Shown here: positions 10,060-55,378 of the stretch, in pieces
Position numbering within the stretch: the stretch's first letter is position 1
Layout: every line of letters starts with the position of its first letter
DNA from: an uncultured Chitinophagaceae bacterium
Lineage (GTDB): Bacteria > Bacteroidota > Ignavibacteria > UBA10030 > UBA8401
Length of the DNA stretch: 64,000 bases
Assembly: GCA_964409765.1 (NCBI GenBank)
Contig: CAYPEM010000007.1
Coordinates: forward strand, 12,033 to 76,032
Direction of reading: 5' to 3'
The notes under the pieces: generated by a model
Database searches by the model: none
The model's input: the letters and a program-made list of their open reading frames with translations, nothing else
Told to the model about the DNA's origin: nothing
Translations under genes and position numbers: made by a program

Positions 10060-11445
10060 ATGACAATCTTATTAGAAACGTACAAAAAAGTCTTTAATCT
10101 CCTACATGATTTCGCATTTTTGGTAAATGGTTCTGCTGACATTATTGACGCTAATTCAAAAGTCATTCAACGGGGCTTCACCCATGCAAATCTCATCGAA
10201 TGTTTTTCAGACGAAAGTAAAAATCAGTTCAAAAGATCGTTACAGGATAAACCAGTTACCTTCAGAACTGATTTCTTTTTTTCTCTGAAGGATCATCTGT
10301 TCACTGAAGTAAATATTACGCCATTGAGTGTGGATCAAGAAGCGGTTTTTCTTGTCGTTGTAAAAGATATTACAGTTCAGCACGATAAAGAATTAGAACT
10401 CCTTCGCTTTTCTGAAGTGATTCATCGCACTGTAAACCCTATCCAAATAACCAACCCTGAAGGCAAAATAATTTATGTAAATCCCGCCTATGTGAATATA
10501 AGCGGATATTCCAGAGAAGAATTAATCGGAAAAAATCCAAGTGTGTTAAGCAGCGGTAAACATACAAGCGATTTTTGGAAAAAGGTCTGGGCAAAGATTC
10601 TTACCGGACAGCAATGGGTAGGGCAAATACAAAATAAACGGAAGTCAGGTGAGTTGTTCCATAGCGAACTTGTTATTTCGCCTATCGTTGATGAACAGAA
10701 AAAAGTAATTGGATTTATGGGAGCCCACAGAGATATCACTGAGCAGAAGAATCTAGAACGCCAGGTTGTTCGTTCACAGAAGATGGAAACATTTGGCACC
10801 CTTGCAGCGGGAATTGCTCATGAAGTAGGAAATCCATTGACTTCAATTTCTTCGCTCGTTCAATTAGTCCAACGACAATCCAGTGATGACTTTGTTCAAG
10901 AGAAACTTGAATTGGTAAAAAATCAGATCAATCGAATATCAAAAATTTTACGGGAACTCGTTGATTTTTCCAGACCATCTACTCATGATATCAAAGATGT
11001 CAGCGTCAATTTGATCTTGCGAGAGGCTCTTAACATCGTACAATACGGTAAAAAATCCCGTGCAACAGTATTTGATGTTGCATTGGAAGAGAACCTTCAA
11101 ATGGTTCATGCTGTACCGGACCAACTTCTGCAGGTATATTTGAATATCTTAATGAATGCTGTAGATGCATGCGAAGGAAAGCGAGGACAGATATTTGTTA
11201 CAAGTGCAGCACGGGGGGATTGTGTTGAAGCGGTCTTCAAGGATAATGGTTCGGGAATCTCAGAGAAAAATTTAGGGAAATTATTTGATCCATTCTTTAC
11301 AACTAAAGAAGTCGGCAAAGGTACAGGGCTTGGTCTTTGGGTGAGTTTAGGGATCGTGAGGAATTTTGGAGGAGACATTTTTGTCGAAAGTGAAGAGGGG
11401 AAAAGCACAACGTTTACAGTACGATTACCGGTAAAGGGAGCATAA
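10060..11445 (+). CDS. Cytoplasmic PAS-domain sensor histidine kinase (NtrB/AtoS-like)
   Basis: No transmembrane segment. PAS region, H-box AHEVGNPL, N-box NILMNAVDA, G-boxes DNGSGI and GTGLGL. Confidence 0.9.
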   Translation: MTILLETYKKVFNLLHDFAFLVNGSADIIDANSKVIQRGFTHANLIECFSDESKNQFKRSLQDKPVTFRTDFFFSLKDHLFTEVNITPLSVDQEAVFLVVVKDITVQHDKELELLRFSEVIHRTVNPIQITNPEGKIIYVNPAYVNISGYSREELIGKNPSVLSSGKHTSDFWKKVWAKILTGQQWVGQIQNKRKSGELFHSELVISPIVDEQKKVIGFMGAHRDITEQKNLERQVVRSQKMETFGTLAAGIAHEVGNPLTSISSLVQLVQRQSSDDFVQEKLELVKNQINRISKILRELVDFSRPSTHDIKDVSVNLILREALNIVQYGKKSRATVFDVALEENLQMVHAVPDQLLQVYLNILMNAVDACEGKRGQIFVTSAARGDCVEAVFKDNGSGISEKNLGKLFDPFFTTKEVGKGTGLGLWVSLGIVRNFGGDIFVESEEGKSTTFTVRLPVKGA

Positions 11446-30390: not shown

Positions 30391-31212
30391 TTATTTTTTA
30401 ATTTCCATTACATGAAATGTGTAAACAACGTTGATTTCTACACCTTTTGAATTATCCGACGATGAAAAGTTCTTGATACCGAATAACAATAACGATAGAT
30501 CATCTGAAACACTTGTTTCAAGTCCAAGCTTTATATTTGATAAATGCCGGATTCCGTTTCCATCATGGCCTCTTCGTCCGGAAGATTGAAGATGCAGATC
30601 TGTTGTGGATCCGATGGGCAAAAGATATTCAATACCATAGATAAATACATCATGTTGTGAACTGACAAGAGTAGGGTCTCCAAGGATTCCAAGACCTGTA
30701 TTGATAGTCCATAAACCTACAAAATGTTTTTGAAATAATAACGATGAAAAGAAATTCATTTCGTCAATGCCAAGACCGGATTCATTACTTGCATTAGGAA
30801 GCTGAACTCCAAAACGAACCGAGAATCCTATTGATGAGGAGTATTCATTTAACACACTAAACTTTGTCCATAATGAAAAATCTCCAATATCAGCAGTCTG
30901 ATTATTGGTAGTTGTTATCCCAGAATTGAAAGCAGGTTGTCTCTTGGTAATGTCAAGAATGTTCAATAACGTTCCTTCTGTTTGGAGTTCAACAAATCCG
31001 CTAAGAGATATGCAGAACCGCAAATTACCCAATTTCCAAAGGCTACCTTCCAATCCGGAAAGAGGGAACGGTTGTTGAAGAAAACGAGCAGCTCCAAATT
31101 CTATTTGAGCATGGCCCGGATCAAGAAGGGTTGCGGTTTCAATAGCGTGAAGATGCTGTTGAGAAATTAGAATTGAAGGAAGGATACAGAGAAGAAGTAA
31201 GAATTTCTTCAA
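30391..31212 (-). CDS. Putative outer-membrane beta-barrel protein, function unknown
   Basis: TTG start with an AGGA ribosome-binding site, signal peptide KKFLLLLCILPSILISQ, and alternating-hydrophobic strands throughout. Confidence 0.5.
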   Translation of the reverse strand: MKKFLLLLCILPSILISQQHLHAIETATLLDPGHAQIEFGAARFLQQPFPLSGLEGSLWKLGNLRFCISLSGFVELQTEGTLLNILDITKRQPAFNSGITTTNNQTADIGDFSLWTKFSVLNEYSSSIGFSVRFGVQLPNASNESGLGIDEMNFFSSLLFQKHFVGLWTINTGLGILGDPTLVSSQHDVFIYGIEYLLPIGSTTDLHLQSSGRRGHDGNGIRHLSNIKLGLETSVSDDLSLLLFGIKNFSSSDNSKGVEINVVYTFHVMEIKK

Positions 31213-35822: not shown

Positions 35823-36220
35823 AGAACAACAATTATATTAAAAGTTATCGAAAAAATGGTCTAAAGTCAATGTAAGGTTGTGAGGTCTGATTCACATCTC
35901 TTCATATATTTTTGAATCACATTCTAGATTTTTTTTTAACATTGTTTAATGGTTTATTTTTATAACACTTTTTCTTTGATGAATGAGTGATATTGCATTA
36001 ACAAATTACCTGCAGTTTATATTTTTTTATTGAGGGCTTTGTGGAAGTTTTATCAATGATGTTAAAAAAATTTCTATAACGGATTATGGGGGACAATAGA
36101 AAAATGATCCATTTATAACGGCAGTATGTGGCAATTGTCAAGCAATGAAGAAACTGATGAGACGGTGTCAAGTTATGTTTTATTACTATAAAGCACTCAA
36201 AAAAAGACTTAATTTTTTTC

Positions 36221-36249
36221 TTGACTTGAGTAGTATAACCCTCTATATT
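36221..36249 (+). promoter_or_regulatory. Sigma-70-type promoter upstream of nrdJ
   Basis: TTGACT (36221-36226), 17-nt spacer, TATATT (36244-36249). Implies a 5' leader of about 200 nt. Confidence 0.55.
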
Positions 36250-36458
36250 CGCTTGTAGTTAGAGTGAACATAGTTCTCACCGTACTATCAAATCGTTAAT
36301 AATATTAGCTTCACATAGTTTTTTCTCAGTAAAATGAGGAATTCGATATTTTTTTTCTTTTTATAACTCTAAAACAACTTTTTTTGAGTTACTCCAAAAT
36401 CAGACAATACACTATCAATTTTATAACACAGTTTTAATTAACAGGAGGACATAACCCA

Positions 36459-39200
36459 ATGAGTGACACAAAGGTAGCGGTAAAAGAAACTGCGACATCA
36501 CGAAAAACCGGGACTCAGGGGCTCACATTCGGTCGTTTTTTCACCAAGCAGGGTATTCATCCGTTTGATGAGATTGAATGGGAAATGAGAACCGCAGTAA
36601 TCACAAATGAAAAAGGGGAAAAGATTTTTGAACAGAAGAATGTTGAGATCCCAAAATCGTGGTCGATGACCGCTACAAATGTTGTTGTGTCAAAATATTT
36701 TCATGGACTTATTGGGACACCAGATCGTGAAACCAGCGTGCGACAGATCGTAGATCGTGTTGCAAAATCAACTGTGGCGTGGGGACGCAAACAAAAATAT
36801 TTTGCAACTGAACAAGATGCAGATATTTTCTATAGTGAATTATGTTTTATTCTTGTTAATCAATACATGGCTTTCAACAGCCCCGTTTGGTTCAACGTAG
36901 GTATAGAAGAGCGACCACAATGTTCAGCTTGTTTCATCAACTCTGTTCAAGACTCCATGGAATCAATTCTTGGGTTAGCCCGTACTGAAGGAATGCTCTT
37001 TAAATTTGGTTCTGGTACCGGTTCAAATCTCTCGACATTACGTTCTTCAAAAGAAGTTCTTGCCGGCGGGGGTACTGCTTCAGGACCGGTATCCTTTATG
37101 AAAGGTTTTGATGCGTTTGCCGGCGTTATAAAATCAGGTGGAAAAACTCGCCGCGCTGCAAAGATGGTCATTCTCAATGTTGATCATCCGGATGTGGTGG
37201 ATTTTATTAACTGCAAAGCTGTGGAAGAGAAAAAAGCCTGGGCGTTGATCGATGCTGGATATAATGGAGGATTCAATGTTCCTGGTGGGGCATATGACTC
37301 TATCTCATATCAGAATGCAAATCATTCGGTTCGTGTAACTGATGATTTCATGAAAGCAGTCCTTGAAGATAAAGAATGGCAAACGAAGTCGATCAAGGGA
37401 GGAAAACCGGTTGATACATTCCGCGCCCGTGATCTTATGAGACAAATTTCTGAAGCTGCGTGGTTATGCGGAGATCCGGGAATGCAGTTCGATACAACAG
37501 TAAATGCATGGCATACATCCTCAAATACAGCTCGCATCAATGCGTCGAATCCGTGCAGCGAATATATGTATCTAGATGATTCAGCATGTAACCTTGCATC
37601 TCTCAATTTGATGAAGTTCCGTACTGATGATGGTGAGTTTAATGTTGAAGCTTTCAAATTCGCAGTTGATATAACGATCACAGCACAAGAAATCTTTGTA
37701 GACAATGCAAGTTATCCGACACCAATGATCGAAAAAAATAGTCATGATTATCGTCCACTCGGTTTGGGTTACGCAAACCTTGGTGCGTTATTGATGGCTC
37801 GCGGTTTAGCATATGATAGTGAATCTGGTCGCGAATATGCAGCAGCAATTACTTCGTTGATGTGCGGAGAAGCGTATGCCCAGTCATCACGAATAGCTAA
37901 AGAAATGGGACCGTTCAAAGGATATGCTGTCAATCGTGAACCGATGCTGAATGTAATGAATAAGCATAGTGTTCATGCAGATAAAATCTCTCAGCAATAT
38001 GTTCCAAGCCAATTATGGGAAGCTTCCAGCACTTCGTGGAAAGAAGCAATTGAACTTGGAAAAGAATCCGGATACCGCAACGGACAAGCTACCGTGCTTG
38101 CACCAACCGGCACCATCGGATTTATGATGGACTGCGACACCACCGGTGTTGAACCCGATATCGCTCTCGTGAAATACAAAAAACTCGTCGGCGGCGGAAT
38201 GATGAAGATCGTCAATCAGACAGTTCCTGAAGCGCTTCGTAAGCTTAATTATGACAGCGAGCAGATCGAACATATCATTTCCTACATTGATAAGAATGAT
38301 ACAATAGAAGGGGCACCGTTCCTGAAGGAAGAACATCTATCGGTATTTGATTGTGCATTCAAACCATCAAAAGGAAAACGTTCTATTCAATATATGGGAC
38401 ATATCAAAATGATGGGTGCAACACAACCGTTCCTTTCCGGTGCAATTTCCAAAACAGTGAATATGCCGAGTGAAGTGACACCCGATGAAATTATGCAGGC
38501 GTATGTTGAATCGTGGAAACTCGGTTTAAAAGCTGTTGCAGTCTATCGTGACGGATGCAAACGCACACAACCTCTTTCGACTTCGTTAGACAGCGATAAA
38601 AAGAAAGAAGAGAAAAAAACGGAAATACGTCTTGCACGTCGCCGATTACCGGCAGAACGCAAAGCTTATACCCATAAGTTCAGCATTGCCGGTCATGAAG
38701 GATATATCACCGCCGGCATGTATGAAGATGGTTTACCGGGTGAAGTTTTCATCACGATGTCGAAAGAAGGTTCAACGCTTTCCGGTATGATGGATGCGTT
38801 TGCAACTTCGATTTCCATAGCACTTCAATACGGTGTTCCGGTAAAAGTGCTTGTGGATAAATTCTCGCATATGCGGTTTGAACCTTCAGGGTTCACACAG
38901 AATCCCGAGATTCCGATCGCAAAATCGATCTGCGATTATATCTTCCGCTGGTTAGGGATTAAATTCCTGCCGAAGGATGAACAGCCGATCAATGTTGTTG
39001 CTGAATCAATGGTATTAGAAACACCGAAAGTTGAATCCCGCGTTGTTGAAACAATGGCTGCAGCGGCAGAACGGGGAGAAAAATACGTATTCCAAACACA
39101 GGCAGATGCACCGCCGTGCCATGAATGCGGAAGTTTGATGATCCGTTCGGGTGCATGCTATAAATGCACGCAATGTGGTTCGACTTCAGGCTGCTCATAA
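36459..39200 (+). CDS. nrdJ: Class II (adenosylcobalamin-dependent) ribonucleotide reductase
   Basis: 913 aa. Active-site NPCSEY, TGVEPD, and C-terminal zinc ribbon CHECGSLMIRSGACYKCTQCG. AGGAGG ribosome-binding site. Confidence 0.93.
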   Translation: MSDTKVAVKETATSRKTGTQGLTFGRFFTKQGIHPFDEIEWEMRTAVITNEKGEKIFEQKNVEIPKSWSMTATNVVVSKYFHGLIGTPDRETSVRQIVDRVAKSTVAWGRKQKYFATEQDADIFYSELCFILVNQYMAFNSPVWFNVGIEERPQCSACFINSVQDSMESILGLARTEGMLFKFGSGTGSNLSTLRSSKEVLAGGGTASGPVSFMKGFDAFAGVIKSGGKTRRAAKMVILNVDHPDVVDFINCKAVEEKKAWALIDAGYNGGFNVPGGAYDSISYQNANHSVRVTDDFMKAVLEDKEWQTKSIKGGKPVDTFRARDLMRQISEAAWLCGDPGMQFDTTVNAWHTSSNTARINASNPCSEYMYLDDSACNLASLNLMKFRTDDGEFNVEAFKFAVDITITAQEIFVDNASYPTPMIEKNSHDYRPLGLGYANLGALLMARGLAYDSESGREYAAAITSLMCGEAYAQSSRIAKEMGPFKGYAVNREPMLNVMNKHSVHADKISQQYVPSQLWEASSTSWKEAIELGKESGYRNGQATVLAPTGTIGFMMDCDTTGVEPDIALVKYKKLVGGGMMKIVNQTVPEALRKLNYDSEQIEHIISYIDKNDTIEGAPFLKEEHLSVFDCAFKPSKGKRSIQYMGHIKMMGATQPFLSGAISKTVNMPSEVTPDEIMQAYVESWKLGLKAVAVYRDGCKRTQPLSTSLDSDKKKEEKKTEIRLARRRLPAERKAYTHKFSIAGHEGYITAGMYEDGLPGEVFITMSKEGSTLSGMMDAFATSISIALQYGVPVKVLVDKFSHMRFEPSGFTQNPEIPIAKSICDYIFRWLGIKFLPKDEQPINVVAESMVLETPKVESRVVETMAAAAERGEKYVFQTQADAPPCHECGSLMIRSGACYKCTQCGSTSGCS

Positions 39201-44523: not shown

Positions 44524-45060
44524 ATGAAAAAACAACTTCTGTTACTTGCTGCAATTGCACTGTTCATCGCTGTTGGATGTAAAAAAGAGGATGATGCTGT
44601 TGTTACACCAACAGCAACAGATCCGATCGTTGCCGTATGGGTTTCTGAGGGCTTGAATGTTCCATTCGGACTTCGCAGCGCACCATTTAAAGTGAAAAAG
44701 ATCGTTGCTACGTTCAATTCGAACAAATCGTACACCGTTGTTCAAACAGACAGCGCGAATGTCCAAACGACATTCACCGGAACCATCACCACAAATGAAT
44801 CTGCGAACACTGATACTGCATCTGCTTCGTTGACCAAAGGTGCAAAGATCAACAACATTGTTGCAAATCAAGCCACTCCTTCCGCTGTAACTTCGACTGG
44901 TATTTTTGCGATCAGCGGTGCAAATATGACCTATGAGATCATACAGACCACCCCTGCATTGGCAGGAGTTTCAGCTCCGACAGCAGCCGGTGGTTTTGGC
45001 AGCACAACAATTGCAGGAGTAAAGTATTCTATCTATGTTCAAAAATATGTAAAGCAATAA
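44524..45060 (+). CDS. Lipoprotein of unknown function
   Basis: Lipobox LFIAVGC, T/A/S-rich mature part, AAGGAGG ribosome-binding site. Confidence 0.6.
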   Translation: MKKQLLLLAAIALFIAVGCKKEDDAVVTPTATDPIVAVWVSEGLNVPFGLRSAPFKVKKIVATFNSNKSYTVVQTDSANVQTTFTGTITTNESANTDTASASLTKGAKINNIVANQATPSAVTSTGIFAISGANMTYEIIQTTPALAGVSAPTAAGGFGSTTIAGVKYSIYVQKYVKQ

Positions 45061-45122: not shown

Positions 45123-46697
45123 ATGAAAACTTCAAAGTTCCTAATCCAAAGTTCAATACTATTCATATTAAGTCTTACATTATTTGCACAGGATAGTTCA
45201 TCGTTCTTTGACCGATCAAAGCGAATATCAGACCCAAAACCACAGGAGTTCCGATTTATCGGTTACTGGTTTACCCGTGGTACAGCATCAGATGTTGCGC
45301 CAACCAATGAGTTATTACGAGGACAGATTATCGGACGATTGTTTGGACCGAACACTACAAATACATCTGCCAAAACATCATCATTCGTTGAACAGCGGTT
45401 TGTTCCTATGTTCATTTATTCACCATCGATTCTTGATGGCGTTGCCACATTTCGAAGCTTATTTAAGATTGATATGACGTGGGGGGATGCTTCGTATGGA
45501 ACTGGAGGAAATGTTGGAGGAGGTATCAATGCCGGGCAAGTAAATTTGCAAACGCTTCTTGCCAATGTAGATATACATCCGACAGACGCACAATGGAATG
45601 TAGTGATTGGATTACAAAGAATATTTGATAATGTGCGTGATCCTAATGTGTCAGCAGTGAGTACGGCGCAGACAAGCGGATACAAACTCGCTTATTTTGG
45701 TACGCAGGGAGTTGGTATCAGTGTGTTTGGTTATTTAAATAAGGAAATACAAATGCGGGCGGGATATTATCAGTTGTATGAGAATACAATTCAAGAAGAT
45801 GATGATGTTGCATTATGGATGTTTGATGTTGAATCGCGAGTTACTGATAGATTAGAACTTGGAGCAGATGCATGGTTTACTTGGGATCGGGGAAAGAACG
45901 GCGGAGGAATTTCAGTTTTGGGTCAAGGGTTGAATAGCACTCTCGCGGAGTATAATGGTGCAACACGATTAAGTTTTCCATCATCTAAATATGAAGCGAA
46001 CATCGGCTGGCTTGGTTCACACGCGTCATATAATCGAGACTTTGCTACAGGTCGATGGTGGGCTGATGCTTTTGTGATGGCAAATATCGGAACGATTGAC
46101 ACTGTTGGTGCGTCAGGCAAAAAATATTATGCGGATATTTTTGGCGTTGCGGCAAATGGTTCCGTTAATTATAAGTATGGACAAACTGTAAATGATCGAA
46201 TAACATTTGAAGCAATATATACGACCGGTGATAAGAATGGCGCGGCCGATAAAACGGTAAATAGTGTTATTACGGGAAACGTCTATGGTTCGCCGACTGC
46301 AATTTATAGTAATCATAGAGCGTTGTTACTTTTTCCAGATGCAAAAGTAGTTAATAGATATTATTCAAGTGTGCACGATATTTCTAATATGGGACTTGGA
46401 GTCACAGGAATATTTCTTAATGCTTCCCATGATCTTGTCCCAAATAAAATCATGATAAAAGTTGGCGGTGCAACCGCTCTTTCAAATATGGCACCGACAG
46501 GAGGTGGAAACTTAGTCGGCACAGAAGTTAATGTTGAAGCTCAATATACCTATAAGGTTTTTCTTACATTCGGCGCCAGTGCTGGTTATTTGAAACTCGG
46601 TGATTTTTACGACAGTCCGGCAGTAACATATAATAATTCACGCCCCTCTCATGATCCGTGGGTATTTTTTCTCAATATGATGTGGTTAATGTTCTAA
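45123..46697 (+). CDS. Putative outer-membrane beta-barrel protein (porin/uptake-channel-like), family unknown
   Basis: Signal peptide ..LTLFAQ, abundant aromatic-girdle/G-rich strands, C-terminal aromatic MMWLMF beta-signal. Confidence 0.55.
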   Translation: MKTSKFLIQSSILFILSLTLFAQDSSSFFDRSKRISDPKPQEFRFIGYWFTRGTASDVAPTNELLRGQIIGRLFGPNTTNTSAKTSSFVEQRFVPMFIYSPSILDGVATFRSLFKIDMTWGDASYGTGGNVGGGINAGQVNLQTLLANVDIHPTDAQWNVVIGLQRIFDNVRDPNVSAVSTAQTSGYKLAYFGTQGVGISVFGYLNKEIQMRAGYYQLYENTIQEDDDVALWMFDVESRVTDRLELGADAWFTWDRGKNGGGISVLGQGLNSTLAEYNGATRLSFPSSKYEANIGWLGSHASYNRDFATGRWWADAFVMANIGTIDTVGASGKKYYADIFGVAANGSVNYKYGQTVNDRITFEAIYTTGDKNGAADKTVNSVITGNVYGSPTAIYSNHRALLLFPDAKVVNRYYSSVHDISNMGLGVTGIFLNASHDLVPNKIMIKVGGATALSNMAPTGGGNLVGTEVNVEAQYTYKVFLTFGASAGYLKLGDFYDSPAVTYNNSRPSHDPWVFFLNMMWLMF

Positions 46698-49043: not shown

Positions 49044-49059
49044 TTGTTATTTGATACCT

Positions 49060-49425
49060 ATGAAAAAAGCTCTTGTTGTTGACGATTCTGAGGCGAACAG
49101 AATGCTTCTAGGTGCATTTCTCACCAAATTAAATCTATCGGTTGAGTATGCTGAAGATGGGGATGAAGCGGTTCATAAATTTCTTCAACTGCAGCCCGAC
49201 GTTGTCTTTATCGATCAAATTATGCCCACGAAAAATGGGGCAATTGCTTTGCGAGAGATGAAAAACAACAATGAAGACTTCATTGGATTTTTGATGTCCT
49301 CATATACAGACCGGGACCAAATAAAAAAGATTGTTGAAGAATCTCATGCGCAAGAATTTGTCCCAAAACCGATTGTTTTTGAAACCATACAAATATTGAT
49401 GAAGAAGTATCGTATCATTCCATAA
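49060..49425 (+). CDS. Single-domain CheY-like response regulator (REC0)
   Basis: VVDDS, phosphoacceptor VFIDQIMP, LMSS, and FVPKP (Lys-Pro with an aromatic residue at -3). Confidence 0.85.
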   Translation: MKKALVVDDSEANRMLLGAFLTKLNLSVEYAEDGDEAVHKFLQLQPDVVFIDQIMPTKNGAIALREMKNNNEDFIGFLMSSYTDRDQIKKIVEESHAQEFVPKPIVFETIQILMKKYRIIP

Positions 49426-49486
49426 TTTGAAATTCACAGATCAAAAAAAATAATAAGGCCTTTAAAAAAGCAAACCAGATTCTTTC

Positions 49487-49515
49487 TTGCTTAACATCCC
49501 TTTTATTCATACTAT
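49487..49515 (+). promoter_or_regulatory. Weak sigma-70-like promoter candidate ahead of REC1
   Basis: TTGCTT, 17-nt spacer, TACTAT. Confidence 0.3.
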
Positions 49516-49545
49516 CTGCACACAATTTCATATTTAGATATATCC

Positions 49546-49911
49546 ATGAAAAAAGCACTAATTGTTGATGATTCTGCATATAACAGAACTTTGCTGAATG
49601 CCATTCTTCGGAAAAAAGGGTTGATAGTTGAAACCTCTGATAATGGGGAAGATGCAGTGACAAAATTCACCGCCGGACAACCCGATATCGTTTTTTTGGA
49701 TTATATTATGCCAAAAAAATCAGGAATTGAAGCACTGGCAGAGATGAAAAAAATTAAACCGGAATTTATCGGCATTATGCTGACTTCAATTTCCGGAGCT
49801 GAGGATGTTCAAGCAGCAAAAGCAGCTGGAGCAAATGGTTATATATTAAAACCGTATGAAGCAGAAAAAATCTATGAAGTGTTAAGAAAACATCATCTCA
49901 TTGAAGAATAA
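49546..49911 (+). CDS. Single-domain CheY-like response regulator (REC1)
   Basis: IVDDS, VFLDYIMP, MLTS and GYILKPY motifs. Confidence 0.9.
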   Translation: MKKALIVDDSAYNRTLLNAILRKKGLIVETSDNGEDAVTKFTAGQPDIVFLDYIMPKKSGIEALAEMKKIKPEFIGIMLTSISGAEDVQAAKAAGANGYILKPYEAEKIYEVLRKHHLIEE

Positions 49912-50240
49912 TGGTACCCAATTACGCTTGTCCAACTTGCAATAAAAAATATTTCGATCCGCCTTTTCTCTGCACCGATTGCGGAACGGAAATGGGATGG
50001 AAGTGTTCCTCATGTAACCACGGAAACCCATTGGTGTACCGACGGTGCGGCAAATGCGCAATGCCAATTCCAATGGTGATTGCAGCGATGATCAAAGAAG
50101 GAAAACAATTACGTATCATTAATATCCCTCAATACAGCGAAAGTGATATCAGCGAGTTGCTGGAAGAGGGTGAACGCCTCGTAGCCAAAAAAGAAATTCA
50201 AACTCTCACCCAAGCGGATCTCGATAAACTTTTCGAATAG
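49911..50240 (+). CDS. Double-zinc-ribbon protein with C-terminal TQADLDKLFE tail (DZR1)
   Basis: Four CxxC pairs in the first ~50 aa. TAATG overlap with REC1, and the stop lies 3 nt before the ATPase1 start. Confidence 0.7.
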   Translation: MVPNYACPTCNKKYFDPPFLCTDCGTEMGWKCSSCNHGNPLVYRRCGKCAMPIPMVIAAMIKEGKQLRIINIPQYSESDISELLEEGERLVAKKEIQTLTQADLDKLFE

Positions 50241-50243
50241 CCT

Positions 50244-51947
50244 ATGTTTAACCGCGAAGATCTTCAATTCCGAGATTACTGTATCACCAATAAAATCCTT
50301 TCAGAAGAACGCTGGAAACAGTTTGTTGATACCGCCAATAATTACGGGATGAACGAAGGTTTTTCTAAAGCGCTCATTGAATTCAAATTTTTTACTCCGG
50401 AAGAACTCGTCAGTCATATTGGAAAAGCATTTACGCTTCCGGTGATGAAATTATATGCTGAGACAAACTCTGCTCCGCATGAGATACTCTCTATCACATT
50501 CATACGAAAACATCGGGTGATTCCGATGTTCCTGTTCGGGAATGAACTGACTATTGCATTCATTGATCCGCCTTATAAATCTGTTTTGGATGAACTCGCA
50601 AAACTCACACAAAAAAAGATTGTTCCAGTGATCTCTGCGGCACCGGATTTTGATGAGACCTTGAAAATTCAACAAGGCGGGTTTGACGAATTAAAAAGGA
50701 TCGCAAGTGCCATCGACATTCAAAAATTTGATGTCGTTCGTACGGGTGAAAAAGAAGTAGATCGTTTGGAAAAGATTGGTGAGTTTCCTCCGATGATAGA
50801 ATTGGTTGATGAGATATTCCTAAGGGCAATAAAAATTGGGGCTAGCGATATCCACGTTGAACCATTTGAGGAGGAAATACGACTCCGTTTTCGTTTGGAT
50901 GGTGTATTGCAGCGTGTTGCCTCGTTTCCTCATAAGATTGCAGAAGGTATGGCCGCGGTGATCAAAACCAAAGCGGACATGGATATCTTTGAAAAGAAGA
51001 AACCACAAGATGGTCGTATCTCGCTGACACTTGAAACACGATCATTTGATCTTCGGGTAAATTCACTTCCGACAGTGAATGGTGAAAAAATTGTGCTGCG
51101 GATTCTGAATAAAACATCCATCAATAAAAAGATCAATGACCTTGGACTTGCTACGCACAACCTTGCGATGCTGGAGCATTTGCTGACCCAGCCTAATGGA
51201 TTATTGCTTGTTACAGGCCCGACCGGAAGTGGAAAAAGTACGACATTGTATGCGGCAGTAAATCATATTAAAAATGTTGAAAAGAATATTGTAACGGTAG
51301 AAAATCCTGTTGAATACCTGGTTGACACAGTCAATCAAGTGAATGTCGATCCCGATCGCGATCTTACTTTTGCAAACGCATTGCGAGCTATTTTGCGTCA
51401 AGATCCGGATGTTGCGTTGGTGGGAGAAATTCGCGATACCGAAACCGGAATTATTGCAACGGAAGCAGCCTTAACCGGACATTTAGTGTTAAGCACACTC
51501 CATACCAATGATGCAGTGGGTGCAATTCCCCGGTTGATCAATATGGGTGTTCCGTCATATTGGCTTGCTCCGGCTTTGATCGGAGTTCTTGCACAACGAT
51601 TGGTACGGAAGATCTGCGAGCATTGCAAAGATGAATATCAGCCGACTGATGAAGTATTTTACAAGGCAGGATTAAGCAGTCTTTCCGGTCGAGCTCCATT
51701 TTTCCGCGGCACAGGATGTAAAAAATGTAATTTCCAGGGATTTAGCGGACGACTTGCAATCCATGAAGTATTTATTGTCAATGAAGAAATTCAAAACCTG
51801 ATTTATCAAAACGAAACCACTACAAAGATCCGTGATGCAGCAATAAAAAGCGGATTCCGTGATCTTCGTTTTGACGGTCTGAAAAAAGTAATAGCTGGCC
51901 TGACGACTTTAGAAGAGATTCACCGGGTAACCCGTTCAACGTTGTAA
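50244..51947 (+). CDS. GspE/PilB-family secretion-type ATPase (paralog 1, all catalytic boxes intact)
   Basis: T2SSE N-domain, Walker A GPTGSGKST, Asp box TVENPVEY, Walker B ALVGEIRD, His box TGHLVLSTLHTNDA, tetracysteine CEHC..CKKC. Confidence 0.92.
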   Translation: MFNREDLQFRDYCITNKILSEERWKQFVDTANNYGMNEGFSKALIEFKFFTPEELVSHIGKAFTLPVMKLYAETNSAPHEILSITFIRKHRVIPMFLFGNELTIAFIDPPYKSVLDELAKLTQKKIVPVISAAPDFDETLKIQQGGFDELKRIASAIDIQKFDVVRTGEKEVDRLEKIGEFPPMIELVDEIFLRAIKIGASDIHVEPFEEEIRLRFRLDGVLQRVASFPHKIAEGMAAVIKTKADMDIFEKKKPQDGRISLTLETRSFDLRVNSLPTVNGEKIVLRILNKTSINKKINDLGLATHNLAMLEHLLTQPNGLLLVTGPTGSGKSTTLYAAVNHIKNVEKNIVTVENPVEYLVDTVNQVNVDPDRDLTFANALRAILRQDPDVALVGEIRDTETGIIATEAALTGHLVLSTLHTNDAVGAIPRLINMGVPSYWLAPALIGVLAQRLVRKICEHCKDEYQPTDEVFYKAGLSSLSGRAPFFRGTGCKKCNFQGFSGRLAIHEVFIVNEEIQNLIYQNETTTKIRDAAIKSGFRDLRFDGLKKVIAGLTTLEEIHRVTRSTL

Positions 51948-51963
51948 TTATTGTGATCATATT

Positions 51964-52353
51964 ATGAAAATTGAAGATGTTTCTGTATTAGTTGTCGACG
52001 ACTCCGATCATATTCGGACTTTGTTTGCGATGACGCTAAAAAAAATGGGAATCAAAAATGTGCATTATGCTGCAGATGGTGCAGAGGGTCTACTCCGATT
52101 CAATAATGATAAACCAACCATTACATTTTTGGATAATATGCTGCCAAAACTTTCAGGTATGGAAGTGTTGAAAGAGATACGAGCAGTAAAATCCGATGCG
52201 ATTGTCGTCATTGTCTCAGCGGTATCAAGCATCGAAGTAGTTCAGGAAGCGAAAAGGAGAGGGGCGAGCTATTATCTTGTGAAACCATACATGCCATCAA
52301 AAATTGTTGAAATCATACAAAAGTTATTGACCCTTGAAGGGAGTGCAATATGA
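51964..52353 (+). CDS. Single-domain CheY-like response regulator (REC2)
   Basis: VVDDSD, TFLDNMLP, IVSA and SYYLVKPY motifs. Confidence 0.9.
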   Translation: MKIEDVSVLVVDDSDHIRTLFAMTLKKMGIKNVHYAADGAEGLLRFNNDKPTITFLDNMLPKLSGMEVLKEIRAVKSDAIVVIVSAVSSIEVVQEAKRRGASYYLVKPYMPSKIVEIIQKLLTLEGSAI

Positions 52354-52670
52354 TATGTACTTCATGTGGAAATGATAATCCACGAACAACACCCGAATGC
52401 ATCAGTTGTGGAAACAAATTAACGGTGATCCGCTGCAAATGCGGTTTCTTCAATTCATTAATGGATTCGTACTGCGGATCCTGCGGTAAGCAATTGATGA
52501 AATCAAATACGATATCGCGTACGCAGCGGTTTGAATCGATCTCGACAATAGCATCACCATTTACCGAGCAGGAATTAATGCGCATCGTTGAAGTGAATCA
52601 GATGCAAAATCATCTGGAACAAAACACCAACATGGTGTCACAAAATGATATTGATAAACTTTTTGAGTAA
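52350..52670 (+). CDS. Double-zinc-ribbon protein with C-terminal SQNDIDKLFE tail (DZR2)
   Basis: CTSC, CISC, CKC and CGSC pairs. ATGA overlap with REC2, and the stop lies 3 nt before the ATPase2 start. Confidence 0.7.
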   Translation: MICTSCGNDNPRTTPECISCGNKLTVIRCKCGFFNSLMDSYCGSCGKQLMKSNTISRTQRFESISTIASPFTEQELMRIVEVNQMQNHLEQNTNMVSQNDIDKLFE

Positions 52671-52673
52671 GTT

Positions 52674-54368
52674 ATGATCAGAGATGAAGATGTTCGACTA
52701 TCAAAATTCCTCTTTACCAAAGGATATATCGATAAGTTAAAGTTTGATAAGTTCCACAGGATCATGAATGAACCTGATGGCAAACAATGTGTTGAAGTAT
52801 TAATAGATGCAATGGGGGTAAATGACGAAATTGTCGCAACGGCAATCTCGGAAGAATTCAAGATACCCTATGTCAACCTCTCCTCTTCAATAATCACTCT
52901 CAATAGTCCATCCCTAAAAGATGAATTCCTAAAAAAATACCAGGCGCTTCCCATCATTCGCAGCGGTGTGGAACTTACAGTCGCATTCATAAATCCGCCG
53001 TATAAGGATGTTGTCGATGAAATGCGTCGTGATTCAAAAGTATTCGTTGTTCCGGTTGCTGTTAGACGCTCTGCGTTTGATGCGATAACTAAAAAAGTTC
53101 ATGTTGAGGAAGTTGATGAGTATCAACAAATACCATCAAAGTTTCAGCTGGATATGATCGATACCCGTAAGCGATCGAAGGAAAAAATAAATGAACTAAT
53201 GAAGTCCGGGAAACTGCCCAATGCCGATGTATTGATCGATGAGATCCTCATTACCGCGATCAAAAATGGTGCTACGGATATTTATTTTGAACCGATGGAA
53301 CAGGAATTTCGCGTACGGTATAATATCGACAGCGTTCTTGAACATGCAGTGTCGTTACCAAAAGAAATGACCGAAGCGTTATGCAATGTTATGCGGTCCC
53401 GCGGCAGTCTTAATATGTTTGAAAAAAAGAAACCTCAAGATGGACGGTATTCGTCAAATTACGGCAAATTCCATTTTGACATGCGCGTTAGCACACTACC
53501 GACTGTTGAGGGGGAACGATTTTCAGTTCGAATCCTAAAAAAGAATAACAGAGCTGTTGATATTAATGATATTGGTCTCTCACCGGAGAATTTGTCACTG
53601 GTTCGTTATCTGCTCAATCGTCCTCGCGGATTGCTCGTTATAGCCGGGCCGTCTGCCGCGGGTAAAACAACGACCGTCTACGGATGTATGAATGAACTGA
53701 AGGATTCTCAAAAAAACATCATTACCGTTGAAAATCCTGTGGAGTACCGTCTTGAATTTGCAAGCCAAGTCCAGGTGGATGTTGATCAGAAAATGGATTA
53801 TGCATCTTCAATGAGAGCGGTGCTTCGGCAACATCCCGATTTGATCTTCCTTGGAGAAATTCGAGATGCTGAGGCTGGAAGTGCAGCTGCAGAAGCAGCG
53901 CTGACGGGAACAATGGTTGTAACAACAATTCTTTCCAGTGATGCGCTGTCATGCATTCCCCGAATGACAAATTTTGGAATTCCACCGTCATGGCTGGCTC
54001 AAACATTAAACGGAATCATCTATCAGCAATTAGTTCGTAAAATTTGCAATCATTGCCGAGAAAGTTATAAACCGACAAAGCATATGTTAAATGCTGCCGG
54101 GTTGAATCAATTGGAGGATTCAATTTTATTGTACCGCGGCAGCGGCTGTGAAGTGTGCGGTGGAGATGGATATTTGGGAAGAACGGCAATCCATGAGATT
54201 TTAGTTGTCGATGAAGATCTCAAAGATTTGATCTTTCATCAAGCATCACCCGTTAAAGTGAAAGAAGTTGCTACCAAAAAAGGTTTTGAAACCATCCGGT
54301 TTGATGCGGTAAAAAAACTTGTTTCAGGTGTCATTGCACTGGAAGAATATCTGCGAGTACTTGGTTAA
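52674..54368 (+). CDS. GspE/PilB-family ATPase paralog 2 with degenerate His box
   Basis: Walker A GPSAAGKTT, TVENPVEY, FLGEIRD, and CNHC..CEVC. TGTMVVTTILSSDA replaces the His box. Confidence 0.9.
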   Translation: MIRDEDVRLSKFLFTKGYIDKLKFDKFHRIMNEPDGKQCVEVLIDAMGVNDEIVATAISEEFKIPYVNLSSSIITLNSPSLKDEFLKKYQALPIIRSGVELTVAFINPPYKDVVDEMRRDSKVFVVPVAVRRSAFDAITKKVHVEEVDEYQQIPSKFQLDMIDTRKRSKEKINELMKSGKLPNADVLIDEILITAIKNGATDIYFEPMEQEFRVRYNIDSVLEHAVSLPKEMTEALCNVMRSRGSLNMFEKKKPQDGRYSSNYGKFHFDMRVSTLPTVEGERFSVRILKKNNRAVDINDIGLSPENLSLVRYLLNRPRGLLVIAGPSAAGKTTTVYGCMNELKDSQKNIITVENPVEYRLEFASQVQVDVDQKMDYASSMRAVLRQHPDLIFLGEIRDAEAGSAAAEAALTGTMVVTTILSSDALSCIPRMTNFGIPPSWLAQTLNGIIYQQLVRKICNHCRESYKPTKHMLNAAGLNQLEDSILLYRGSGCEVCGGDGYLGRTAIHEILVVDEDLKDLIFHQASPVKVKEVATKKGFETIRFDAVKKLVSGVIALEEYLRVLG

Positions 54369-54390
54369 CCTAATTCACTAATCGCAAATT

Positions 54391-54419
54391 AAAGGACGCA
54401 GAGTGAATGCGTCCTTTTT
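54391..54419 (+). terminator. Rho-independent terminator closing the REC/DZR/ATPase array
   Basis: AAAGGACGCA-GAGTGAA-TGCGTCCTTT followed by TT. Confidence 0.85.
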
Positions 54420-54433
54420 ATTTACTACCAACA

Positions 54434-55378
54434 ATGAACAGAACAGATCGATTATTTGCCATTCTTCTTAACATTCAATCCAATGCACGTGTACGTGCAG
54501 AAGATCTGGCTGCAAGATTTGATATAACAAAACGAACTGTCTATCGAGATATTTCTGCACTCATTGAGGCTGATGTTCCGATCATAGGAAAAGCGGGAGA
54601 AGGTTATTCAATCGAAGATGGTTATTTCCTTCCGCCCGTCAGTTTTACCAAGGCTGAAGCGTTACTGTTGATTCTTGGAGCCGATGCAGTAGGGCAGCAT
54701 TTTGATGCGCAGTATAAAAAGGCTGCGCGATCAGCAGAAAATAAAATTCAAGCATCCCTTTCCAAAGATCTCAAGAAGGAAGTAGCGTACTTAAAAAGCT
54801 ACATCAGTTTTTTCTCTGGAATCAACAGCGGAAAAGGAACATTGAACGATGCGATGCAGAAAATTCGTCGCGGCATTATAGAAAAGAAGAGCCTTGCATT
54901 TCGGTACTTCAAACGATATTCCGATACCACCGAACCTATGGTTCGGGAAGTCGATCCGTATGCACTGACAAACTTTTATGGCAATTGGGCAATGTCCGGT
55001 TATGACCATTTAAGGAACGATCTACGGATGTTCCGCCTGGACAGAATGGAAGCGGTGTTGGTGACAAGCAAATCGTTTGAGCGTCCGAAGAATTTTCGCT
55101 TTTCACAACTGGCAAAGGAAGATCAATCTATAAAGACATTGTATCAAGTGAAGATTGCGAAAGATATTTTCCGTTGGGTAAAAGAACAACCTCCGTATAA
55201 GATCATTAAAACACAAACCCTAAAGAAACATATTCTTCTCACTATTGAATCTTCGAATGAAAATTCACTCGTCACATGGCTTCTGCGATGGGGAGACAAA
55301 GCTGAAGCTGTTTCTCCCACAGCATTCCGTGAGAATATCAAGACCACTCTCGCAAGACTTCTAGAAGTCTACGAATAA
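54434..55378 (+). CDS. YafY-type HTH-WYL transcriptional regulator
   Basis: MNRTDRLFAILLNIQS..RAEDLAARFDITKRTVYRDISAL, followed by a WYL-type central domain. Start moved past the terminator. Confidence 0.85.
   Translation: MNRTDRLFAILLNIQSNARVRAEDLAARFDITKRTVYRDISALIEADVPIIGKAGEGYSIEDGYFLPPVSFTKAEALLLILGADAVGQHFDAQYKKAARSAENKIQASLSKDLKKEVAYLKSYISFFSGINSGKGTLNDAMQKIRRGIIEKKSLAFRYFKRYSDTTEPMVREVDPYALTNFYGNWAMSGYDHLRNDLRMFRLDRMEAVLVTSKSFERPKNFRFSQLAKEDQSIKTLYQVKIAKDIFRWVKEQPPYKIIKTQTLKKHILLTIESSNENSLVTWLLRWGDKAEAVSPTAFRENIKTTLARLLEVYE

Follow-up and report, generated by a model that had tools for sequence, protein, structure and literature searches.

A double-zinc-ribbon protein family as an almost obligate genomic partner of a PilB/GspE-type ATPase subfamily, usually accompanied by a CheY-like receiver

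Genes of the duplicated module

The DNA analysed here (the window, 64,000 nucleotides of contig CAYPEM010000007.1 from an uncultured Chitinophagaceae bacterium, GCA_964409765.1) carries a seven-gene unit on its plus strand, in which a single-domain receiver (REC), a small double-zinc-ribbon protein (DZR) and a PilB/GspE-family ATPase are encoded side by side, twice in tandem. Comparison with related loci shows that DZR is nearly always encoded together with an ATPase of one particular PilB/GspE-type subfamily, and that a single-domain phosphorylatable receiver usually accompanies the pair. The unit begins with REC0 (49060-49425, Response_reg in Pfam at 65.5 bits; the TTG at 49051 is another possible start), a stand-alone CheY-like receiver and the extra, unpaired member. 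The first triplet consists of the CheY-like receiver REC1 (49546-49911, Response_reg 89.2 bits), the 109-aa DZR1 (49911-50240, with four Cys pairs at 49929-50057) and the 567-aa ATPase1 (50244-51947, T2SSE 424.6 bits and MshEN, PF05157, 39.6 bits). Similarly, the second triplet consists of the CheY-like receiver REC2 (51964-52353, Response_reg 84 bits), the 106-aa DZR2 (52350-52670, Cys pairs at 52356-52484) and the 564-aa ATPase2 (52674-54368, T2SSE 325.2 bits and MshEN 30.7 bits), a paralogous ATPase in which both His-box histidines are missing. An intrinsic-terminator-like hairpin at 54391-54417, with 10 pairs (5 G-C) followed by a T run, closes the unit. The original prediction, which was made from the letters of the window, had described these seven same-strand genes and a single terminator, and the list of open reading frames (ORFs), the Pfam matches and a hairpin scan agree with it. 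The junctions also read as it had given them, namely, a one-base TAATG overlap and a 3-nt gap in the first triplet, a 16-nt gap between the triplets, and an ATGA overlap and a 3-nt gap in the second; this packing is tight enough to allow translational coupling within the triplets. Minus-strand ORFs within the module genes are short shadows, and the G+C content is flat across the locus.

Pairwise comparison bore out the proposal that all three positions of the triplet are paralogous between the two copies. ATPase1 and ATPase2 share 39% identity (E 6e-154), DZR1 and DZR2 share approximately 20-30% (E 2e-6), and REC1 and REC2 are 43% and 28% identical to REC0, respectively. In the other genomes with a duplicated module, the copy-1 proteins are closest to copy 1 of the window and the copy-2 proteins to copy 2. 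Since the orthologues sort by copy rather than by genome, the duplication is old, and the paralogy together with this copy-wise grouping supports the duplication of a whole module.

All receivers of the module carry D12, D13, D57, T/S87, K109-P110 and an aromatic residue (Y/F) at position 106. Position 87 is Thr in REC1 and Ser in REC0 and REC2, position 106 is Phe in REC0 and Tyr in REC1 and REC2, and D57 lies within FLDYIMP at 49693-49713 in REC1 and at 52126-52146 in REC2. The complete phospho-acceptor set and the lack of an output domain, which are the marks of a CheY-like single-domain receiver, are found in REC0, REC1, REC2 and 70 relatives, and hydrophobic residues are kept at positions 95, 103 and 108. 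None of this makes them chemotaxis CheY proper: REC1 scores 98.7 bits on CheY_Halo, its best NCBIfam match (cut-off 200), and 52.4 versus 189 on PRK10610, and no che genes are present in the window. The orthologues of REC0 in sister genomes lie either before or after the two triplets. As had been claimed, there is no histidine kinase at the locus; the sole histidine kinase of the window (10060-11445) is paired with an NtrC-type regulator.

ATPase1 has every feature that characterizes the PilB/GspE clade: the T2SSE domain, Walker A (GPTGSGKST, 51216-51242), the Asp box (VENPVE), Walker B with the catalytic Glu (DPDVALVGEIRD), the His box (LTGHLVLSTLHTNDA, 51471-51515) and a C-terminal tetracysteine site, formed by CxxC at residues 458 and 492. 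The same features are found in ATPase2, whose Walker A reads GPSAAGKTT (53646-53672), except for the His box (LTGTMVVTTILSSDA, 53901-53945), in which Thr and Leu occupy the positions equivalent to H413 and H420 of Geobacter metallireducens PilB. Of these two Geobacter residues, H420 is in contact with the gamma-phosphate of the nucleotide; the His box has been proposed to mediate inter-subunit cooperativity, and its mutation abolishes activity (PMC5424180). Both histidines are missing from copy 2 in every duplicated genome, and from copy 3 where a third copy exists (L020; related loci are cited here by number), while the Walker lysine and the catalytic glutamate are retained. Walker A, Asp box, Walker B/Glu and His box are all canonical in ATPase1 and in every single-copy relative. 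In one sister genome (L002/L018:7475-9169, GCA_964596155.1), the copy-1 ATPase is degenerate too (GPPGSGKSS, AEHPVA, DADVAFVSEISD and LTGTLILGTLNANDA), and neither ATPase of that pair looks catalytically canonical.

Neither ATPase reaches the curated score of PilB or of GspE. The NCBIfam equivalog cut-offs are 675.65 bits for PilB (TIGR02538) and 630.25 bits for GspE (TIGR02533); ATPase1 reaches 543.7 and 525.4 bits, ATPase2 reaches 410.9 and 403.5 bits, and nine DZR-linked ATPases of other clades reach 436-638 and 427-604 bits. ATPase1 is about equidistant from EpsE/GspE of V. cholerae (397 bits) and PilB of Geobacter (373 bits). The cyclic di-GMP (c-di-GMP) motif of MshEN is reportedly a tandem of the 24-residue pattern RLGxx[LVI][LVI]xxG[LVI][LVI]xxxxLxxxLxxQ. 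This pattern has no match in ATPase1, ATPase2 or any copy of the same lineage, although the MshEN domain is detected in both window ATPases, and the tandem motif is intact in the ATPases of a clade with the gene order DZR-ATPase-REC (L037, L066, L080).

The zinc-ribbon family and its gene context

DZR1 and DZR2 each have four Cys pairs. Their scores on Pfam DZR (PF12773), 19.6 and 23.9 bits, do not reach its gathering cut-off (27.3). Conservation of the four CxxC/CxC pairs extends throughout the family, and the pairs were modelled as two ribbons. A full HMMER search with the DZR profile against 1.84 billion representative proteins gave 201 matches below 1e-10; 112 of the best 150 are proteins of 100-147 aa that align end to end, from low-GC and high-GC organisms, and 110 of these 112 terminate in a motif of the type Q-x-x-[IL]-D-x-L-F. 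At 50% identity, the family comprises more than 100 clusters. In a 116-member alignment, the eight ribbon cysteines and the Gln of the motif are invariant or nearly so, and its Asp and Phe are nearly invariant; a further protein search with this alignment yielded two more distant members usable for gene context. In the AlphaFold2 model of DZR2 (16-sequence alignment, mean pLDDT 74.5), confidently predicted ribbons span residues 1-50, the linker at 53-67 is disordered, and two helices follow, one at 73-93 and a short terminal one at 98-104, which coincides with the conserved motif. Between DZR1 and DZR2 the zinc-ribbon halves have strongly diverged and the tail motif is constant. The DZR1 orthologues of the 18 genomes described below are 61-96% identical.

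The tail motif reads LTQADLDKLFE in DZR1 (50205-50237) and VSQNDIDKLFE in DZR2 (52635-52667), with the family consensus [LV]-[ST]-Q-x-[DE]-[IL]-D-x-L-F, and is predicted to be a helix that follows the disordered linker and the longer helix. It resembles the CheY-binding peptide at the N-terminus of E. coli FliM (MGDSILSQAEIDALL). On a position-specific scoring matrix of the DZR tails, the FliM segment (FliM_N) ILSQAEIDALL scores 18.3 bits; the best of the 19,042 11-mers from the window proteins reaches 12.5 bits, and none of the 19,042 reaches 18.3. The DZR tail follows the FliM_N-type pattern LSQ-x-E-I-D-A-L-L. This likeness is a resemblance of sequence and not demonstrated binding, and a role for the tail in receiver docking can only be suggested from it.

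No description of the family as an accessory factor of PilB or GspE was found in the open-access literature, NCBIfam, PADLOC or the PDB, and the last three hold no model for it. Pfam shows neither a PilZ domain nor a REC-PAS-GGDEF-EAL architecture in DZR proteins. Profile matches in the PDB are generic zinc ribbons; among them, 5a8i_A, the ribbon of Sulfolobus ArnA (an archaellum regulator), matches weakly and over the ribbon only (E = 7.7e-4), probably as a generic ribbon, and was rejected as a functional homologue. Database entries label the members "hypothetical protein" or, wrongly, "amidophosphoribosyltransferase". In two related loci (L021:13684-14370 and L022:6615-7301), a ComF-like gene with a DZR_2 and a phosphoribosyltransferase domain directly follows the second ATPase gene; this domain combination explains the wrong label on some DZR proteins, and the neighbour itself is possibly a hint at DNA uptake, or a coincidence.

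The conservation of the triplet was followed in two ways. A one-genome-per-species profile scan with the DZR1 alignment returned 18 metagenome-assembled genomes (MAGs), labelled Bacteroidota, Ignavibacteriae or "Chitinophagaceae", and the order REC1-DZR1-ATPase1-REC2-DZR2-ATPase2 is present in 18/18. Three tandem triplets occur in L020 (9615-16906 of JACFMZ010000025.1, MAG BROCD011), where the third DZR is reduced to its second ribbon, its middle helix and its tail motif, the first ribbon being lost. In the more distant L021/L022 (GCA_021796215.1) and L023, the duplication is kept among quite different neighbours. A metagenome scan with the pattern D[RK][FY]CGGCG, sampled as the best 80 of 264 confirmed relatives among the first 600 matches listed, added other clades, and the module is found in approximately 40 metagenomic loci of quite different G+C. 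The triplet is thus conserved well beyond its source genome, as these species-level MAGs, distant duplicated versions and metagenomic loci attest. One further family member, outside the surveyed loci, belongs to a Thermodesulfovibrio MAG (Nitrospirota), the only organism name recovered from cluster look-ups. The gene module recurs in at least two bacterial phyla.

Gene context was counted for 78 non-identical DZR genes in approximately 65 loci by frame-independent mapping with hidden Markov models, the metagenome loci from the pattern scan being drawn from the best 80 of the 264 relatives. An ATPase with MshEN and T2SSE lies directly downstream of DZR in 67 of the 70 cases with enough sequence (39/39 in the window lineage and 28/31 in other clades), starting approximately 10-170 nt behind it. 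A receiver adjoins, where both flanks are visible, in 36/36 cases of the window lineage and 10/16 of other clades, either directly upstream (REC-DZR-ATPase) or directly downstream (DZR-ATPase-REC). The six exceptions are L031/L032, with a REC-GGDEF gene upstream and a receiver 0.5 kb downstream; L091, with a receiver 2 kb upstream; L039/L040, with a HATPase_c kinase; and L030, with nothing. The question raised by the original prediction, namely, whether DZR homologues always neighbour both a GspE-like ATPase and a receiver, is therefore answered in part: the ATPase is nearly always there, but the receiver only usually. These comparative data establish that DZR and its ATPase subfamily function together and that a CheY-like receiver is usually part of the unit.

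The three DZR genes without an ATPase behind them are those of L042, L088 and L078. In L042 (200-1349) and L088 (585-1746), the order is REC-DZR-CheX, with a CheX phosphatase (PF13690, 32-35 bits, above the cut-off) in the slot of the ATPase; these loci are an independent link of the DZR family to CheY-type signalling. The sole clear outlier is L078 (288-2590), where the genes behind DZR encode a GNAT acetyltransferase and then a DUF4388(PATAN)-DnaJ-TPR protein, but no ATPase. PATAN domains also occur in cyanobacterial regulators that bind PilB.

Signalling genes also adjoin the module in relatives. Kinases with Hpt and HATPase_c domains, without HisKA or CheW domains, are found next to it in the high-GC loci L025 (4663-6660) and L061 (2-1714 and 4285-6252), and L061 additionally carries a HATPase_c+REC hybrid kinase. 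In L039 (34-1236) and L040 (65-571), also among the high-GC relatives, a HATPase_c protein is encoded directly upstream of DZR and no receiver is visible. Some clades have links to c-di-GMP, with REC-GGDEF upstream, GAF-PAS-GGDEF downstream, or PilZ-REC nearby (L032:8994-10004; L091:4606-6867; L080:384-1064). The phosphorylation control that had been proposed for the module is supported indirectly, by the full phospho-acceptor set of the receivers and by the Hpt-type kinases and CheX linked to it in relatives.

The claim that the 64 kb hold no structural gene of a pilus or secretion system was confirmed by Pfam, by reading of the translations, by synteny and by a prepilin motif scan. Pfam searches of 25.3-46.7 kb and 48.8-55.4 kb revealed no pilus or secretion component; the ORFs of 25-47 kb are MreBC, purine, nuo, ribonucleotide reductase and fatty-acid genes. 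Judged by eye, the translations of the first 25 kb include a RecD-like helicase, a peptidase, dioxygenases, the PAS histidine kinase with its NtrC-type regulator, PEPCK, IleRS, LspA and RluD, and 55-64 kb holds his genes, assigned by synteny with annotated relatives. The prepilin motif G[FM][TS]L[IV]E is absent from every frame of the window. Among 140 ORFs around 12 diverse related loci, just four Pfam families recur, namely, Response_reg (13), T2SSE (10), MshEN (10) and DZR (8); platform (T2SSF), PilM/N/O, pilin, secretin and peptidase families do not recur. Related loci are thus not embedded in type IV pilus or type II secretion operons.

Proposed mechanism and its alternatives

Based on the results presented above, the best reading is that the triplet encodes a phosphorylation-controlled motor module in which DZR tethers the phosphorylated receiver (receiver~P) to the ATPase; it is held here with middling confidence. 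The receiver would be phosphorylated by a histidine kinase, which in the window lineage would be encoded away from the module and in high-GC relatives may be the Hpt-type kinase beside it. Receiver~P may then dock on the C-terminal [ST]Q-x-D-[IL]-D-K-L-F helix of DZR, as CheY~P does on the LSQAEIDALL of FliM. DZR would hold the ATPase with its zinc-ribbon head and middle helix, so that the receiver is tethered to the hexamer and may switch its ATPase activity or its engagement with a membrane platform. Since the c-di-GMP-binding residues of MshEN are lost in the window lineage, phosphorylation would be the remaining input. ATPase1 would be the catalytically canonical motor; for ATPase2, which lacks the His-box histidines, the likelier role is that of a slow or regulatory partner that forms hexamers of its own or shares them with ATPase1. 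REC0 may be a third receiver, serving as a phosphate sink or as an antagonist. Most likely, the module drives the assembly of a type IV filament, either a pilus or a pseudopilus, and the genes of the assembly machinery would lie in another part of the genome. That DZR acts as an adaptor is something we infer from its sequence and neighbours, and we do not regard it as demonstrated.

Several observations weigh against this reading. In CheY, the residues named as FliM_N contacts are K91, Y106 and K119; of these three, only Y106 is kept in the module receivers, in which positions 91 and 119 are not conserved (S/A/N and V/I, respectively). The C-terminal motif is retained in L030, L039 and L040, where no receiver adjoins, so the partner of the tail could instead be the ATPase or a kinase. 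Among 38 long matches, which are unrelated multi-ribbon proteins, there is no natural fusion of DZR to REC or to the ATPase. The locus itself has no kinase gene, and platform, pilin and secretin genes were not seen at any module locus. The sampling also has its limits: only approximately half of the best 80 metagenome loci are full-length family members, the survey was seeded from DZR and so speaks for the neighbours of DZR rather than for every ATPase of the subfamily, and the sequences are almost all from MAGs or metagenomes, whose taxonomic labels are weak.

Retention of the motif at receiver-less loci favours the main alternative, in which DZR is a structural cofactor or chaperone of the ATPase, comparable to PilZ, with the tail bound to the ATPase and the receiver acting on the ATPase directly. 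The adjacency of DZR to the ATPase (67/70) is stricter than that to the receiver, and the missing lysines of the CheY contact set fit this arrangement. There is precedent as well: the small protein PilZ stabilises the N-terminal domain of PilB (N1 in Xanthomonas), and EmvR and DrdR bind PilB without an adaptor. However, the tail motif fits FliM_N better than it fits any other 11-mer of the window proteome, and the DZR proteins of L042 and L088 keep the motif beside a receiver and CheX, with no ATPase in view. Diverged ribbons with a constant motif are also what would be expected if each ribbon half were matched to its own ATPase and the motif bound a generic CheY surface. Both the FliM_N match and the REC-DZR-CheX loci speak for an adaptor, and the structural cofactor seems rather unlikely to be the correct explanation. 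It is also quite improbable, in our view, that the ATPases drive no filament machine and that the module works in the cytoplasm as a device for signalling or remodelling, in which case the lack of platform genes would be genuine. The consistent absence of platform genes nearby speaks for such a role: T2SSF, PilM/N/O, pilin, peptidase and secretin genes are neither found in the window nor recur near the 12 related loci, all tested DZR-linked ATPases score under the PilB and GspE equivalog cut-offs, and ATPase2 has lost its His box. PilB as a signalling protein has a precedent in Myxococcus xanthus, where it is reported to act in exopolysaccharide control (PMC5544727). On the other hand, no catalytic motif is missing from ATPase1 or any single-copy relative, and these proteins also retain the tetracysteine site and the full N-terminal GSPII/MshEN domain, the part that docks PilB/GspE onto PilM/PilC or GspL. 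That this docking domain is intact speaks for a type IV filament machine with its genes elsewhere in the genome. Moreover, pilB genes are often unlinked from other pil genes, which counts against a non-filament role.

The remaining explanation, that the arrangement arose by accident in this lineage or belongs to a mobile or defence island, is hardly credible and is effectively refuted by the comparative data. It could appeal to the HTH-WYL-WCX regulator gene behind the unit, since such regulators often accompany defence systems and this one matches the WYL models of PADLOC. However, the module recurs without the WYL gene in unrelated neighbourhoods and across G+C classes, its own proteins match PADLOC only weakly and partially (SduA and mad8, 19-25 bits, a trivial P-loop/REC similarity), the flanking genes are housekeeping and syntenic, and the base composition is flat.

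The proposed phosphorylation-controlled module has partial counterparts in known systems. One is the capture of CheY~P by FliM/FliY, in which a short amphipathic peptide on a motor-associated protein likewise binds a phosphorylated single-domain receiver; the DZR tail follows the same pattern. Unlike the FliM peptide, which is N-terminal on a switch protein, the DZR peptide is C-terminal on a zinc-ribbon protein and its docking is a prediction; in addition, the motor is a PilB/GspE-type ATPase instead of the flagellar C-ring, and the two CheY lysines are not conserved. Output-less receivers that control a type IV pilus extension ATPase after translation are known from EmvR/DrdR in Xanthomonas, the PATAN-REC proteins PixG/PixH in Synechocystis, and PilG/PilH. 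EmvR represses and DrdR enhances the ATPase activity of PilB, and both bind it; PATAN-type receivers bind and regulate PilB in cyanobacteria. In these systems, however, no zinc-ribbon partner has been reported, the papers describe no fixed operon with the ATPase, and the ATPase belongs to a known pilus, whose canonical PilB it is. PilB-PilZ-FimX of Xanthomonas and Pseudomonas likewise has an obligatory ATPase partner of approximately 110-120 aa, which sits on the N-terminal domain and bridges to a signalling protein, but that partner has a PilZ fold and the sensor responds to c-di-GMP, whereas the DZR module combines zinc ribbons with a phospho-receiver. The c-di-GMP ATPases of the MshE/PilB2/PilF type share the same N-terminal MshEN family, with the motif kept in the DZR-ATPase-REC clade and missing in the window lineage. 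Finally, PilT/PilU are also two side-by-side paralogous hexameric ATPases, one of which may depend on the other, which is conjecture for the window pair; in contrast to PilT/PilU, the window pair are both extension-type (PilB/GspE-like), and the second lacks the His-box histidines rather than having a full catalytic set.

No zinc-ribbon partner of PilB, GspE or MshE was found described in open-access papers or bioRxiv, and a 2024 review of PilB cofactors covers PilZ, FimX, CpiA, phage peptides and c-di-GMP, with no zinc-ribbon partner. The original prediction had called a phosphorylation-controlled ATPase module with a small zinc-ribbon adaptor undescribed. This stands for the adaptor and the module but not for receiver control of PilB as such, already known from EmvR, DrdR, the PATAN-REC proteins and PilG/H; since control of PilB by single-domain receivers has been described, only the adaptor and the module are new. 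In sum, the new elements are the adaptor family, the fixed three-gene module and the conserved paralogue without a His box.

A bolder proposal, which is put forward tentatively and with less confidence than the motor module itself, is that DZR proteins are a widespread and unrecognised class of CheY~P receptors, whose FliM_N-like helix links two-component or chemosensory phosphorylation to PilB/GspE-type ATPases. They would then offer a third output site for CheY, beside the flagellar switch and the CheF adaptor of the archaellum, and, where the module is duplicated, the His-box-less pseudo-ATPase would be a regulatory partner for the active motor. The routes from chemosensory and two-component signals to type IV filament motors are understood piecemeal, from a few model organisms (PilG/PilH, PixG-type, EmvR/DrdR). 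If the tethering mechanism is true, three proteins with acetyl phosphate or BeF3- would be a simple, reconstitutable system for phosphorylation control of a PilB/GspE-type hexamer, and the FliM-type docking solution would have been reused outside flagella. The DZR family has no name, no structure, and no Pfam or NCBIfam model beyond the generic zinc ribbon; its definition would improve the annotation of more than 100 protein clusters and flag "orphan" PilB-like ATPases as signalling-controlled. The conserved paralogue without a His box is a natural test case for the role of this box in the ATPase family.

Neighbouring genes and other features of the window

Immediately upstream of the seven-gene unit, on the same (plus) strand, lies the gene of a 67-aa Cys-rich CWC protein (PF14375; 48840-49043, from the ORF list and Pfam). 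It begins 11 nt past an acyl-ACP desaturase gene and ends 16 nt ahead of REC0, and its position is kept in sister genomes, with 38-63% identity. Downstream, also on the plus strand, the HTH-WYL-WCX regulator gene (54434-55378; Pfam HTH_11, WYL and WCX) is a lineage-specific conserved neighbour outside the core module. It is found 3' of the module in most sister genomes and is missing from L021-L023 and other clades. Its start was set at the ATG at 54434 (MNRTDRLF...) because the ATG of the longest ORF, at 54407, falls inside the terminator hairpin.

A scan for sigma-70 promoters gave 17 sites, compared with 20.8 in shuffled sequence; since such sites are no commoner than in shuffled sequence, no promoter was assigned. 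Whole-window scans revealed no Rfam families and no tRNAs. In particular, the 636-nt non-coding gap at 35823-36458, upstream of a class II (B12-dependent) ribonucleotide reductase gene (36459-39200), contains no cobalamin riboswitch or other Rfam family at the gathering score. Three ORFs, at 45123-46697 (524 aa), 44524-45060 (178 aa) and 30391-31212 (273 aa), have no Pfam match at E <= 1e-4. The product of the 524-aa ORF has a signal-peptide-like start, and its counterparts in sister genomes, with 75-78% identity, are likewise encoded upstream of the module.

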